A stretch of DNA of 64,000 nucleotides from the sequence record NC_054933.1; one strand, given 5' to 3'. The stretch's first letter is position 1. The number at the start of each line of letters is the position of its first letter. Source of the DNA: Escherichia phage teqhad. Shown piece after piece: positions 20,608 through 28,688 of this stretch. The notes under the pieces were generated by a model. The model saw only the letters and a list, made by a program, of their open reading frames with translations, ran no database searches and was not told the origin of the DNA. Made by a program: the position numbers and the translations under genes.

Positions 20608-20615
20608 TATTTATA
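20608..20615 (-). promoter_or_regulatory. late promoter TATAAATA upstream of soc
   Basis: Plus-strand tatttata, i.e. TATAAATA on the coding strand about 30 nt upstream of the soc ATG. Confidence 0.6.
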
Positions 20616-20785
20616 TCAGTCTTCAATGAAAACTTGTGCCAGGAATTCGTGTTCATCTTGAATTTGTTTATATAAAGCCATTACAGCATTTATATTAGAG
20701 CTATCTACTTTAAGTTGATAAGCATACCACTCGTGTAAATTAATTAAAGCTTTTTGACGTCTAATAAATTCTTCTTTGGATATTT

Positions 20786-20986
20786 TCATTTTGAATGCTC
20801 TATAATTAATTTTAAGGCTTTTTCACTGACAAAAATTTCATCAGGACCTTCTTCTACAACCCAATCAACCGTACGAAGCTGATTAGATAAGAGCTCACAT
20901 ACGAGCTCCTTGTCATAATCTTTAAATAGCTGGTCAATACGTTTCTTGCGGGCTTTCTTAAGCTGGCGTTTATTTAAACGAGCCAT
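20786..20986 (-). CDS. hypothetical basic protein (66 aa)
   Basis: Track ORF; its start codon overlaps the gene 56 stop. Confidence 0.45.
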   Translation of the reverse strand: MARLNKRQLKKARKKRIDQLFKDYDKELVCELLSNQLRTVDWVVEEGPDEIFVSEKALKLIIEHSK

Positions 20987-21504
20987 TAATAGCCTCTGTC
21001 TTGACGAGCGAAATTTTCAGCATTTTTCAGATAATAAAGTTTAAAGATTTCTTCAGCTGACATTCCAAGAGCAATGAATTTATTCATGAAAAAGTGAAAT
21101 TGATCAATCAGTTCAAATTTAATTTCAAGTTGATCTTCAGGAGATAAATCTTGAATTTTCTTGGATTGCATTTCAGCATAACGTTTCTTCCAAGGTTTCC
21201 ATACAGCAGAAGCTTCTTTTTCACCATTACTCATACCACCAAGAGAAGTATATAGCTCGCGAGTTTCGTCTGCGATATAATCGTCTTGGTTTCGCAACCA
21301 AGCAAGAACTTCTCCTGCGGTTTCAAGTGAATCAGGATGACGATTTGTTTCTGGTTTATCATTAGCCAAACGAATCTGTAAATGCCGCTGCATGTCAAGC
21401 ATAACTTGTAGTGGGTCAATATTGTGCATAATATTCTCAGCATATGCACGATTTGCTTTATCAACACCTTCGATCAAATGAGCACATTCATTAAAGTGAG
21501 CCAT
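20986..21504 (-). CDS. 56: dCTP pyrophosphatase gp56 (MazG-like, 172 aa)
   Basis: MAHFNECAHLIEGVDKANRAYAENIMHNIDPLQ...; the ATG at 21504 has AAGGAAA SD, so the longer track ORF is an N-terminal over-extension. Confidence 0.85.
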   Translation of the reverse strand: MAHFNECAHLIEGVDKANRAYAENIMHNIDPLQVMLDMQRHLQIRLANDKPETNRHPDSLETAGEVLAWLRNQDDYIADETRELYTSLGGMSNGEKEASAVWKPWKKRYAEMQSKKIQDLSPEDQLEIKFELIDQFHFFMNKFIALGMSAEEIFKLYYLKNAENFARQDRGY

Positions 21505-21575
21505 TATTTTTCCTTTCAATTCATGGGTTAGTAGATTAATTATACAATAAATATATAAAGCAATAAGGAGGACAT

Positions 21576-21776
21576 ATGGTACAAAAATTAATGGCACTTG
21601 TTAATGCCATCAAAGGTAATAAAAAGCGTATAGCTTTTACTATTTCTGCTATGGTAGGAATTTTACTCTGGAACTTTATTTTATCACCTGTTGCAATTGC
21701 ACATGGTATTAATATTCCAGTAGTTACTCTTGATACATTCGTAGATTTAGCATTTGCTTTAGTTGGGTTAATTTAA
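21576..21776 (+). CDS. small membrane protein on the plus strand (66 aa, two predicted TM segments)
   Basis: AAGGAGG SD 4 nt before the ATG; hydrophobic; convergent with gene 61. Confidence 0.45.
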   Translation: MVQKLMALVNAIKGNKKRIAFTISAMVGILLWNFILSPVAIAHGINIPVVTLDTFVDLAFALVGLI

Positions 21777-22801
21777 ATCTTAGCATATTTAGATAGCCGC
21801 ATTTTAGCCATCAACCCCTGGGCAATATTATTTTTCATATATTCCATAATTTGTTCAGGGGTTGCACCTTCCTTTCTAATCATATCATTAACATCTTTTG
21901 ATTTCCAGGGAGATTTATCCCAAAACATAACCCTTTCTCCTGCATCAACCAATTTAGTCATTCGTTTAATAGTGTCAGGGTGACGAGGTTCATTATCTAA
22001 AACCCACACACGTCTATCTTTAAATGGAACAACTTCTAGGTCTAATTGACCACCCGTAATAGCTATACCATTTTCAATAAAAAGTGAATCTATAGGTCCT
22101 TCTAGAACATATACATCACCATCTTTAACTCGTTCGACTCCATATATTTTTGTTGCCTCAGGATAAGCTTTAATGGTGATATATTTTTGAGGAGCATCTT
22201 TCTTTAATGCACGTCCTTGAAAAGACTCAGCTTTTCCGTTAGCATTATAAATTGGAATAACAAGACGAGGCTCAGGTATTTCCTTTTTATATGTTCCCGG
22301 TGCTATGCTATTAACCAATTTAGGCCATTCGGTTGTAAACCAAAGATATTTCCATTTATCCTTTGGAATACAACGAGCTTTTACATATTTTATAATTGGA
22401 TGGTCTTCCGCCAGTTTATCTAATCTAATACATGACGGAAGAAATTTAATTATTTTCTTCTCGGGTTGTTTAGGAAGTTCTTTAGGTTTTTCTACTGGAC
22501 GACTTTTACCTTTTTCTTTTCTTATTTCAAAGATATACTCACGATATAAATCAGGTTCAAACTCCTTTAAATATATTCCGATTGGTGCATGATAGTTACA
22601 GTTATAACAATGAATATTTCCTTCATTATTATCACCATAATACCATCCACGAGCTTTATTCTGGTCGGTTTTTGAATCTCCACAAACAGGGCATCTAAAC
22701 CGCAATTTAAAAGTTGAACTATTATTTACTTGTGTGAATTTAGGTAAATGAGCTAATGCACGGTATGCAAATTCATTATCAATCCAAGGTATTGATGACA
22801 T
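21773..22801 (-). CDS. 61: DNA primase gp61 (342 aa)
   Basis: Zn-ribbon CPVCGDS...CYNC plus TOPRIM region; 342 aa as T4 gp61. Confidence 0.9.
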   Translation of the reverse strand: MSSIPWIDNEFAYRALAHLPKFTQVNNSSTFKLRFRCPVCGDSKTDQNKARGWYYGDNNEGNIHCYNCNYHAPIGIYLKEFEPDLYREYIFEIRKEKGKSRPVEKPKELPKQPEKKIIKFLPSCIRLDKLAEDHPIIKYVKARCIPKDKWKYLWFTTEWPKLVNSIAPGTYKKEIPEPRLVIPIYNANGKAESFQGRALKKDAPQKYITIKAYPEATKIYGVERVKDGDVYVLEGPIDSLFIENGIAITGGQLDLEVVPFKDRRVWVLDNEPRHPDTIKRMTKLVDAGERVMFWDKSPWKSKDVNDMIRKEGATPEQIMEYMKNNIAQGLMAKMRLSKYAKI

Positions 22802-24774: not shown

Positions 24775-24807
24775 ACTACTATACCATAGTCTTGTCAGCT
24801 TGTAAAC
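24775..24807 (-). promoter_or_regulatory. T4-type early promoter upstream of dmd
   Basis: Minus strand GTTTACAAGCTGACAAGACTATGGTATAGT. Confidence 0.5.
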
Positions 24808-26234
24808 TAAAATTTTAATTCATTTGCCAAAGCATCTAACTGGGCTCGAGTGGATTCATTTCTTTGATAGCGATTCTGCTCAGCCTGAATCTGTTGTGAA
24901 CCTGCTACTTCGTTCACTTCAGTTGGAGTAGAATCTTGCTCAATTTCTACCCATTTCTGATTTCCTTTTTGAACACCCATCAAAAACTTATTCCATTTAT
25001 TCTTATCGCCATATCGTGATTTGATTTGCTTAATGAGTTGTTGTTCAGCAGCTGCTAACTCCTCGGTTTCAATGACCGCAAGCATAAAATCGGCTGTTGC
25101 TGGAAGACCGGCAGATTCTGCAATATCGCTCATGTTAACATCAGAAGAATCCCAAGCTTGTTTGCCGACCTGTGCTGCAGTCCAAAGAACAGTTTCGGTT
25201 TCAACAGCCAGAGCACGCAATTCCTCTGCAATAGCTTTAACAGTCGTGTAACTATTTTCTGAATAAACTCTAATGCGGCAAGATTTACAAATACCCAGAT
25301 AGTCAACAATAATGATTGTTGGAACAAAATTCTTCTTGAGCTTCAATTCGTTTAAAAGAGATCGAAATGTATTAGCGTCTGCTCCACCAGTAGGATACTG
25401 TTTAACGATTAAACGACCGAGAGTAGATTTCTCACGCCATTTTTCCATTTTTCCTTTATACTCAGCGTAAGAAATATGCCCATCATCAATGTCATCAAGA
25501 GAAACATCAAGCATATTAGCATCAATACGTTTAGCACAGACTTCTTCTGCCATTTCCATGGAAATGTAAAGAACATTATGTCCAAGCTGCAAATAATCTG
25601 CTGCTAATGAACACAATCCTAATGACTTACCAACGTTAACGCCAGCCATTAAAACGTTCAGCGTTCCAGTCTCAGCTCCGCCTTTAGTAATTTTGTTTAG
25701 AATTCTGAGTTTAAATGGAACCTTACGAGCTTTATTCATATAAGATAGCCAACGTGCTTCGTAGTCATCCATCCAATCATGACCAACGTAGCTATCAAAT
25801 GAAATTGATAATGCTTGACGCATAATGTCAGGAATAGCACCAACATCCGGCATTTTCTTATTTCGTTTTTCCGGAGGAAGCTCAGCATTAGTTTGAATTT
25901 CGATTATTTTAGACGTAGCATTAAACATCGCCCTTTGCTGAACATATTTTTCTGTTTCTTTTATTAACCAACTGTGGTCTTCCGGAGAATCAGCCAGTTT
26001 TGAAATAAGTGTTTTTACACCAGAATATTCTGTTTCAGTAAATGAACTATTTTCTAATGCAACATTTAACGCATTAATAGATGGAACGCTATGATACTCA
26101 TTAACATGAGATTTAATTAATTTGAATGTATTTTTAGCTGGACCACTTTCAAAATATTCTGAATCCATATATGGCCAAACTTTTGAAAAATAAGCTTGAT
26201 CAAATATGAGATGAGAAAGAATAATTTCTACCAC
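24807..26234 (-). CDS. 41: replicative DNA helicase gp41 (DnaB-like, 475 aa)
   Basis: Walker A GVNVGKS; 475 aa; GTG start 5 nt after AAGGAG. Confidence 0.92.
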   Translation of the reverse strand: MVEIILSHLIFDQAYFSKVWPYMDSEYFESGPAKNTFKLIKSHVNEYHSVPSINALNVALENSSFTETEYSGVKTLISKLADSPEDHSWLIKETEKYVQQRAMFNATSKIIEIQTNAELPPEKRNKKMPDVGAIPDIMRQALSISFDSYVGHDWMDDYEARWLSYMNKARKVPFKLRILNKITKGGAETGTLNVLMAGVNVGKSLGLCSLAADYLQLGHNVLYISMEMAEEVCAKRIDANMLDVSLDDIDDGHISYAEYKGKMEKWREKSTLGRLIVKQYPTGGADANTFRSLLNELKLKKNFVPTIIIVDYLGICKSCRIRVYSENSYTTVKAIAEELRALAVETETVLWTAAQVGKQAWDSSDVNMSDIAESAGLPATADFMLAVIETEELAAAEQQLIKQIKSRYGDKNKWNKFLMGVQKGNQKWVEIEQDSTPTEVNEVAGSQQIQAEQNRYQRNESTRAQLDALANELKF

Positions 26235-26243
26235 ACTTACTCC

Positions 26244-26588
26244 TTAAAAGAATTTAAATTTTTTCTTTGACCTTTTATTAAATGCATCTTGCAGTTGCAT
26301 TGTAATACATTTTTCTACATGAGGAGCTAACTCAGCTTTTCTTTCTTGGTCAAGAACAGCAAAGTCCATTACAACCTTTCCATCAACCCAATCCAGTTTA
26401 GTTACATACACTATATGTGTAGAACCATCTTCTAGTTTAATGACAATCTCCTGGATAACATTTTCCATAGCGGATTTAATTATCTTAAGAGATTCATTAA
26501 AAAGACGTTCTTTTCTTTCTTCTTCCCCCTCCGAAGAGGGGGATTCATCGATAATTTCTAGATCTAAATCTAAATCATCTTTATTCAT
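26244..26588 (-). CDS. 40: gp40-like protein (114 aa)
   Basis: Track ORF 26244..26606; the ATG at 26588 overlaps the uvsX stop; size matches T4 gp40. Confidence 0.55.
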   Translation of the reverse strand: MNKDDLDLDLEIIDESPSSEGEEERKERLFNESLKIIKSAMENVIQEIVIKLEDGSTHIVYVTKLDWVDGKVVMDFAVLDQERKAELAPHVEKCITMQLQDAFNKRSKKKFKFF

Positions 26589-27762
26589 TAAATTCTTCCA
26601 TATCACTTAACTGTTCGAGGTCAGTTTCTAAATCAGCTGCTGATTTACTTTTACTTTCTGGAGATTTAAATTTTTCAACCTTTGAGTTAATCAATTCATC
26701 AACTTCAGCTTCAACAATTTCATTACTATCAATAGCACCTAACTGATAAGCACGTTTAATAGCATCTCGGAATGGTTGATGTTTAAATAAAGGACCCCAG
26801 AATGTAGTGCAGTTGGTATCTTTTGCACGCCAAGATTTTTCTTCACGAATCATCTCGCCGGTTTCTTCATCAAGAAATTCACGAGCATACCAGCCATTTT
26901 TAGGTTTTACCACGAATCCTAATTCTAGAGCCATATCTAACAATCCAGAATAAGGATCAATACCACCGTCAAATTTAACATCAATAAAGAATTTACTTTT
27001 TTCTTTAACGGTACGAGATTTTTCTACATTTAGAACAAATTGATACCCCTGAAGATCAGAACCATCTTTAATCTGACGTTTACCGATAATGAATACAGTA
27101 TCAGCCGAATACATTACGCCTGTACCACCTGTCATCACGGTTTTACTAAACATTTCAATTGTTTCAATTGTATGGTTAACCGCAACACATGGAATATTTT
27201 TAATGCTAAAATAAGGAGTAACAATACGGAATAATGACTTCAGTGATTTAGCACGAGTCATATCTGCCACAGATTTTTCATTCAAGGCATCTTCAGTTTC
27301 TTTCTTAGAAGCCATATTACCAATTGAGTCGATGAATACTATAACTTTTTCACCACGCTCAATAGCTTCAAGCTGATTCACCATATCAATTTTCAGCTGT
27401 TCAACTGACTGAATTGGCGTATGAATTACTCGTTCCGGGTCAACTCCCATGGATCGCAAATAAGCTGGAGTAATACCAAATTCACTATCATAGAATAGAC
27501 AAACCGCGTCAGGATATTTGTTCAAATATGCCGCAACCATAGTCAAAGACATATTTGATTTAAAGTGTTTAGAAGGACCTGCAAAAATAGTTAAACCAGA
27601 CTGCATGCCGCCATCAATCGCACCAGAAATAGCAATATTAAGCATTGGAATTTTTGTACGAATTACATCCTTTTCATTAAAGAATTTAGATGTAGTCAGT
27701 TCAGCAGTCATTTTAGAAGTGGAAGCTTTAATCAAACGGGATTTTAAATCTACAATAGACAT
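26581..27762 (-). CDS. uvsX: UvsX recombinase (RecA-like, 393 aa)
   Basis: Walker A GPSKHFKS and RecA fold motifs; acidic C-terminus. Confidence 0.92.
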   Translation of the reverse strand: MSIVDLKSRLIKASTSKMTAELTTSKFFNEKDVIRTKIPMLNIAISGAIDGGMQSGLTIFAGPSKHFKSNMSLTMVAAYLNKYPDAVCLFYDSEFGITPAYLRSMGVDPERVIHTPIQSVEQLKIDMVNQLEAIERGEKVIVFIDSIGNMASKKETEDALNEKSVADMTRAKSLKSLFRIVTPYFSIKNIPCVAVNHTIETIEMFSKTVMTGGTGVMYSADTVFIIGKRQIKDGSDLQGYQFVLNVEKSRTVKEKSKFFIDVKFDGGIDPYSGLLDMALELGFVVKPKNGWYAREFLDEETGEMIREEKSWRAKDTNCTTFWGPLFKHQPFRDAIKRAYQLGAIDSNEIVEAEVDELINSKVEKFKSPESKSKSAADLETDLEQLSDMEEFNE

Positions 27763-27839
27763 TCATTTTTTCCATAGGCATCATTATATTTTCCTCACTG
27801 GTTAAAGATAGAGTAATTATAACACAATAAATTTAGGCA

Positions 27840-28688
27840 TTAATCAACTGCTATTGGATGAATAGCATTAAACTTATGAAATGCTTCTGATTTTTCTTTA
27901 CGTGAAACGCACATGCGAAGAACCTTTAATGGTTCGTCTTCTTCACCCAACGATTTTCGTTTTTCAATATTAGAAGTTTTCCAACGAGCTTGCTCTGGAA
28001 ACTCTCTATTAATCTGCTCAAGCGCTCTATTATGTTTAGAATTACTACGAATTGAACTGCACCCGCCAGGAGCTTGTGCTTTTCCAGATACAACTAGATA
28101 TTTGAACAAGGCCAAATGCGGATAACCTTGATTAATTAAATTGAGAAATGCATACATATCTTCGCATAAATCAATTTTTCCATACCCAATTTGTTCTGTC
28201 GTAAGTTTTCCGAGGTCATACCATGTATTCGTGAATCCATATGAATTTTCACGATAATTACCCCAAGATGAAGTAATTTTAAAAATAGGTAGACGAGCAT
28301 GGCCATGATAATACCCGCAATCCATGGCATCCTCAACATATTGAATCAATTCATAGAACTGTTCACGAGTCAATTGATTGACTTTATCTACGCAACGACG
28401 ATCATCTCTTTTTCGCATTGAACTCATACGAATAGTAGTATCATCGTCAATCATCCAGATTCGTTGACCTGCATACATATCGGTAATTGCTTTACGAGTA
28501 CCGGCAATTCCGTTTACATCATCAGGAATAGTTATAATTTTAGCTCTAGACCCATAAGCGTCATGATAAGCTTTTTCTTCATGTTCACGCACTACAATAT
28601 GCGGTTCATAATCAGTCGGAAACATATCAAGGGCAGAAACTGCCCCGACACGTTGATAACTTGGAATTACGAATTGAATCATTTCCAC
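27840..28688 (-). CDS. putative DNA glycosyltransferase (282 aa) at the beta-gt position
   Basis: Lies between uvsX and 42; has a hydrophobic DDD motif (IWMIDDDTTI) and does not resemble the 351 aa T4 beta-gt that I recall. Confidence 0.5.
   Translation of the reverse strand: MEMIQFVIPSYQRVGAVSALDMFPTDYEPHIVVREHEEKAYHDAYGSRAKIITIPDDVNGIAGTRKAITDMYAGQRIWMIDDDTTIRMSSMRKRDDRRCVDKVNQLTREQFYELIQYVEDAMDCGYYHGHARLPIFKITSSWGNYRENSYGFTNTWYDLGKLTTEQIGYGKIDLCEDMYAFLNLINQGYPHLALFKYLVVSGKAQAPGGCSSIRSNSKHNRALEQINREFPEQARWKTSNIEKRKSLGEEDEPLKVLRMCVSRKEKSEAFHKFNAIHPIAVD

Follow-up and report, generated by a model that had tools for sequence, protein, structure and literature searches.

In bacteriophage T4, the start codon of gene 41 is already known to be GTG, as it is both annotated and published as an ordinary GUG initiation site. 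The T4 records NC_000866 and OZ209057 annotate a 1428-nt coding sequence (CDS) from the same GTG, which in the RefSeq record spans complement(20612..22039), with gene 40 ending 9 nt upstream, and which in the second record was assigned the same start by an independent Pyrodigal annotation. A 2025 paper from the Hinton laboratory prints that the gene 41 start codon is GUG and employs mCherry reporters that carry a gene 41 leader of 358 nt or only 20 nt together with either GUG or AUG starts. This paper was the sole relevant match of a literature search on gp41 and GTG; the search, which missed the primary papers of the 1980s, found no direct N-terminal protein sequence of gp41 and no ribosome-footprint data.

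Two further groups of described sites are relevant for comparison. The first is the general class of GUG sites led by a Shine-Dalgarno (SD) sequence in E. coli and its phages, which are characterized by a strong SD, a short spacer, and a GUG that is likewise read by fMet-tRNA. The second comprises the GUGUG sites, at which the choice of start may be ambiguous and termination-reinitiation may operate (PMC9841429). In that study, only the 3' GUG of the overlapping pair initiated at aligned spacings of 10/12 and 11/13, while ambiguity set in from 12/14. It was further found that GUG is more sensitive to short spacing than AUG, and that a spacing of 12 is sub-optimal for GUG in vitro (PMC9841429).

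The gene 41 start and its counterpart in T4

In the 64-kb stretch of DNA analysed here (the window), gene 41 is represented by an open reading frame on the minus strand (24807..26234; 475 aa plus stop) that encodes gp41, the DnaB-like replicative helicase of the primosome. A GTG is the first start-type codon of this frame, and the protein begins with MVEIILSHLIFDQAYF (MVEIILSHL...). The assignment follows from the open reading frame and from the comparison with T4: in a phmmer search against the PDB, residues 1-475 aligned to residues 1-475 of T4 gp41 (8dtp_A) with one substitution, I91V, which identifies the product as the orthologue of T4 gp41 over its full length. The T4 gp41 chains of 8dtp and 8duo and of related PDB entries also have 475 residues and begin with MVEIIL. 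At the nucleotide level, the window shares 100% identity with both T4 records over the 121 nt that have the start at their centre, and the order uvsX - 40 - 41 - dmd on one strand matches the order annotated in T4 and in phage NBG2.

A direct reading of the minus strand from 26246 to 26226 gives T-AAGGAG-TAAGT-GTG-GTA-GAA, in the wider context of AAATTCTTT TAA GGA GTA AGT GTG GTA GAA ATT ATT, with TTT before the TAA. The SD sequence UAAGGAG (26246..26240, minus strand) is complementary over 7 nt to the 3' end of the 16S rRNA, and a 5-nt spacer, TAAGT (26239..26235), separates it from the GTG (26234..26232), which is read as fMet according to the sequence, the T4 annotation, the literature and the relatives. 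The preliminary description, made from the letters of the sequence, had placed the GTG 5 nt after a strong AAGGAG, and this arrangement is indeed present, with AAGGAG at 26245..26240; the interval it gave (26232-26246) comprises precisely the start codon, the spacer, the SD and the stop of gene 40. The first three nucleotides of the SD (26246..26244) are at the same time the TAA stop codon of the upstream cistron, gene 40, which encodes a head vertex assembly chaperone of 114 aa (26244..26588, minus strand; annotated at 22049..22393 in T4, 345 nt). This stop is in frame with the GTG and precedes it by 9 nt.

Since the gene 40 TAA is an in-frame stop 4 codons 5' of the GTG, an in-frame ATG upstream is impossible for gene 41, and on the downstream side the next in-frame ATG occurs only at codon 23 (26168..26166, minus strand). 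The earlier statement that no nearby in-frame ATG would keep the conserved N-terminus thus holds on both sides. The GTG is consequently a start codon without an upstream alternative, and it is followed by conserved coding sequence from its first codon onward. In the metric of PMC9841429, its aligned spacing is 12, a workable distance for an SD complementary to the 16S rRNA 3' end. Compared to the general class of SD-led GUG sites, the site is not unusual; its spacing is slightly below the optimum of 13-14. T4 gene 41 shares all of its elements, from the gene 40 stop and the SD to the spacer and the GTG.

Taken together with the codon usage of the relatives described below, we consider it close to certain that gene 41, which encodes the replicative helicase of this T4-type phage, is genuinely translated from this GTG. 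The proposal that gene 41 starts at GTG is thereby borne out by the open reading frame, the T4 annotation, the statement in print and the start-codon signature seen among the relatives, and the suggested comparison with the annotated T4 start leads to the same codon in the RefSeq CDS at complement(20612..22039). The scientific stakes of this result are small, as the T4 GTG start stands in a curated genome record and is knowingly used in current experiments.

The motif alone is statistically unremarkable. AAGGAG-N5-GTG occurs once in the 64-kb window, compared with a mean of 0.25 in shuffled sequences and at least one match in 21 of 100 shuffles, and TAAGGAG is not enriched in the window (5 found, 6.5 expected). 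The case for the GTG start is made not by the motif count, but because this GTG heads a conserved open reading frame and is conserved in relatives. RNA folding of 111 nt around the start gave -13.8 kcal/mol, where shuffled sequences averaged -14.9 (z = 0.37). The start region is thus without significant structure, which is in favour of initiation there, and has no regulatory hairpin. A scan of 26100..27900 returned fewer promoter-like sites than in shuffles, none bearing on the start, and a single terminator-like site, which lies on the plus strand and has no bearing on the start either.

The window is a T2/T6-type Tequatrovirus and not T4 itself. About 680 phage records match over a 2-kb region, with Tequatrovirus NBG2 as the best (98.4%) and T4 at 97.9%. 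In contrast to T4, the window (26581..28688, minus strand) encodes a UvsX of 393 aa (391 in T4), is without the homing endonuclease gene segA, and carries in place of the T4 b-gt gene a 282-aa open reading frame (27840..28688, minus strand) that matches the beta-glucosyl-HMC-alpha-glucosyltransferase of NBG2, a DNA-modification locus of the T2/T6 type.

Two other GTG codons in the region are longest-ORF artefacts. The GTG start of the glucosyltransferase frame (28688..28686, minus strand) has its counterpart in NBG2 in an ATG a few codons downstream, giving a CDS of 843 nt. Similarly, the longest frame of gene 40 begins at a GTG at 26606..26604 (minus strand; 120 aa), whereas T4 annotates an ATG downstream, at 26588 (114 aa).

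Start codons among relatives and the ATG at codon 23

For a comparative view, 45 IMG/VR loci encoding gp41 relatives with 59-100% identity were considered, which together with the window comprise 46 loci and 31 distinct start regions. At the position aligned with the gene 41 start, the distinct sequences carry GTG (25), ATG (5) or TTG (1), and GTG is found in 40 of the 46 loci. The other valine codons, GTA, GTC and GTT, occur in none of the 31 distinct start regions. By comparison, the conserved Val19 uses all four valine codons and Leu9 six leucine codons among the related loci. The codon at the aligned start thus changes only among start codons, and this restricted interchange, set against the free codon choice at Val19 and Leu9, is the signature expected of an initiation codon. 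In one locus (L047), ATG replaces GTG in a context that is otherwise identical to that of its GTG-bearing relatives L028 and L046. The GTG-start relatives also have an SD-like GGAG or GAGG 5-6 nt before the aligned start (8 nt in one alignment, that of the L027-type group).

Within codons 2-22, the mean pairwise differences amount to 0.25, 0.16 and 0.52 per site at codon positions 1, 2 and 3, respectively. The region is conserved as protein and diverges preferentially at third positions, and we therefore conclude that it is translated. This bears directly on the only in-frame competitor, namely translation from the ATG at codon 23, which would yield a helicase of 453 aa and leave the GTG as a valine codon in an untranslated leader. 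Such a start is annotated in three of the nine sampled GenBank records: NBG2 (MH243439, 4033..5394), which is the record of the best DNA match to the window, EPIMRB01 (PQ657784, 167..1528) and Roth20 (PQ657793, 167..1540). The other records use the gene 41 GTG, and a Gaprivervirus record takes an in-frame GTG that lies two codons before it. From our point of view, initiation at codon 23 is scarcely conceivable. The 22 codons 5' of it are kept as protein while synonymous change is abundant, its ATG is preceded by ...aaagtttggccatat (ttggccatat) and has no purine-rich SD, and the residues ahead of it can be aligned to the first residues of distant, ATG-initiated homologues. Moreover, codon 23 is a leucine codon in seven loci (L027, L032, L036, L037, L041, L042 and L044), so that the downstream ATG cannot be the start of the family, and the GTG is the start taken in the curated annotation of T4, in the PDB constructs and by the Hinton laboratory. 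Evidence for initiation at a downstream ATG had been named at the outset as what would refute the GTG start; such initiation is excluded by the comparative data, despite the three of nine sampled records that annotate the ATG. The codon-23 annotations are automatic calls and not experiments, and they reflect the preference of gene callers for ATG. The practical value of the GTG assignment lies in annotation quality, as a third of the sampled T4-like records lose 22 conserved N-terminal residues of the helicase.

Beyond this group, eight distant homologues, from Acinetobacter, Krischvirus, Slopekvirus, Vibrio, Aeromonas and Kuttervirus phages and from the cyanophages S-RIM2 and P-SSM2, have an ATG at the aligned start or close to it, and seven of them are annotated with ATG. 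Their N-termini align at the same xxE/DxI/VLSxL motif. Because these more distant homologues carry ATG at or near the same N-terminus, we conclude that GTG is a derived state that is stably kept within the Tevenvirinae.

A separate observation concerns the helicase of P-SSM2 (L054, GU071092, 359..400), whose annotated start is a TTG, with an ATG following seven codons later (MERIETTILRNLV). This ATG is closer than the annotated TTG to the aligned N-terminus of the family, and the TTG start is probably an over-extended annotation.

The overlapping GUG pair

As a small correction to the preliminary description, the gene 41 start belongs to a GTGTG, in which two GTGs overlap, and is the 3' one of the two. 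The 5' GUG (26236..26234, minus strand) opens a mini-ORF in another frame, GUG-UGG-UAG (26236..26228), which is predicted to be unused. The site thereby resembles the ambiguous GUGUG and AUGUG sites (PMC9841429) in that overlapping GUGs follow a UAAGGAG-type SD and in that a stop lies two codons on in the 5' frame. It differs from them in its spacing, as the aligned values are 10 for the 5' GUG and 12 for the gene 41 GUG, whereas the ambiguous sites need 12/14 or more, and in that the motif is unconserved beyond the T4-close phages.

One could imagine that both codons are used, with some ribosomes starting at the 5' GUG, making fMet-Trp, stopping at the UAG (26230..26228, minus strand) and reinitiating on the gene 41 GUG, so that helicase output would be lowered or tuned. 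The required sequence, GUGUGGUAG, is present in the window, both ambiguity and termination-reinitiation have been demonstrated at GUGUG sites (PMC9841429), and the UAG in the 5' frame is conserved, since codons 2-3 read GTA GAA in 24 of the 25 distinct GTG-start sequences. We nevertheless regard dual initiation as very improbable. At a spacing of 10/12 the published assays show use of the 3' GUG only (PMC9841429), and the 5' GUG is not conserved, being present only in the T4-close group and absent from the RB69-like and all more distant GTG-start lineages. The conservation of the UAG, in turn, is more readily accounted for by its role in other lineages, where it terminates gene 40. The annotated GUG is hence predicted to be the one that should be used exclusively, because the 10/12 spacing gave 3'-only initiation in that study (PMC9841429).

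Linkage to gene 40 and a putative initiation mechanism

The distance between the gene 40 stop and the start of gene 41 was read in the window (26246..26228, minus strand) and in the loci L027, L028, L033, L039, L045, L047 and L041 (around 1489-1500). Throughout the surveyed GTG-start lineages of the Tevenvirinae, it lies either at -12 to -15 or at +5..+7 from the gene 41 start. The upstream stops are TAA codons that coincide with the SD or adjoin it, and the internal stops are the UAG inside GUG-GUA-G at +5..+7 and, in L041, the stop in TTGGTAA. Codons 2-3 (GTA GAA) are near-invariant at the wobble position. The +1-frame UAG contained in GUG-GUA-G is the gene 40 stop of the Gaprivervirus-like lineages, and it persists out of frame where gene 40 stops earlier, 12 nt upstream. 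A stop close to the downstream start is therefore not only present in the window, it is also conserved among the relatives, and this tight linkage makes it plausible that the two genes are translationally coupled.

Based on these features, initiation might proceed as follows. The 3' end of the 16S rRNA in the 30S subunit would pair with UAAGGAG, by which the GUG 5 nt downstream would enter the P site, and initiator fMet-tRNA would read this codon, so that the protein would begin with Met-Val-Glu-Ile-Ile-Leu. As the SD overlaps the gene 40 stop, ribosomes ending gene 40 would be released 9 nt before the GUG, and they probably also feed gene 41 initiation, which would amount to coupling on a polycistronic uvsX-40-41 mRNA. 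A GUG at slightly short spacing should further keep the output somewhat below that of an AUG, in line with what would be a modest need for the protein. Methionine aminopeptidase is known for its general specificity, which includes removal of a methionine that precedes valine, and the N-terminal Met of gp41 would probably be removed in this way.

A stricter version of coupling would be that most gene 41 translation is carried out by ribosomes arriving from gene 40, through obligatory termination-reinitiation, and that the GUG is tolerated only owing to this coupling. The position of the gene 40 stop, 9 nt before the GUG and overlapping the SD, would suit such an arrangement, and so would the stops of the relatives, whether they fall at -12 to -15 or, within GUGGUAG, at +5..+7. 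However, a strong 7-nt SD is present, and the Hinton laboratory used a leader of 20 nt, lacking gene 40, to drive a GUG-mCherry reporter. Obligatory coupling therefore seems unlikely: the strong SD and the short-leader reporter imply that ribosomes can enter independently, and coupling would then probably add to this entry instead of being a requirement.

Going beyond additive coupling, one could speculate that GUG-GUA-G is a conserved start/stop module which couples helicase synthesis to gene 40 translation across the Tevenvirinae, and that the GUG would be selected, and not merely tolerated, because it keeps output low and upstream-dependent. We consider this doubtful. Nonetheless, the conservation of GUG within the Tevenvirinae, as opposed to ATG farther out, together with the linkage to the gene 40 stop provides a small hint as to what determines the dosage of the helicase.

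Genes 40 and 41 of T4-type phages share a frame and are separated only by the TAA plus GGA GTA AGT (26246..26232 in the window, minus strand, with the GTG included). A gp40-gp41 readthrough fusion as a conserved feature was considered and rejected, as the offsets vary in the relatives (-12, -13, -14 and -15), and such a fusion is unlikely to have a function.

Lastly, the Gaprivervirus-like start region (L062, MT611523, 77..97; near 1477-1497 in the L027-L046 group) reads GAG GTG GTG GAA GTG GTA GAA and contains an apparent 9-nt near-duplication that results in three in-frame GTGs. MT611523 annotates the middle GTG, whereas the third is the one indicated both by aligning the region to T4 and by L047, which has ATG there.
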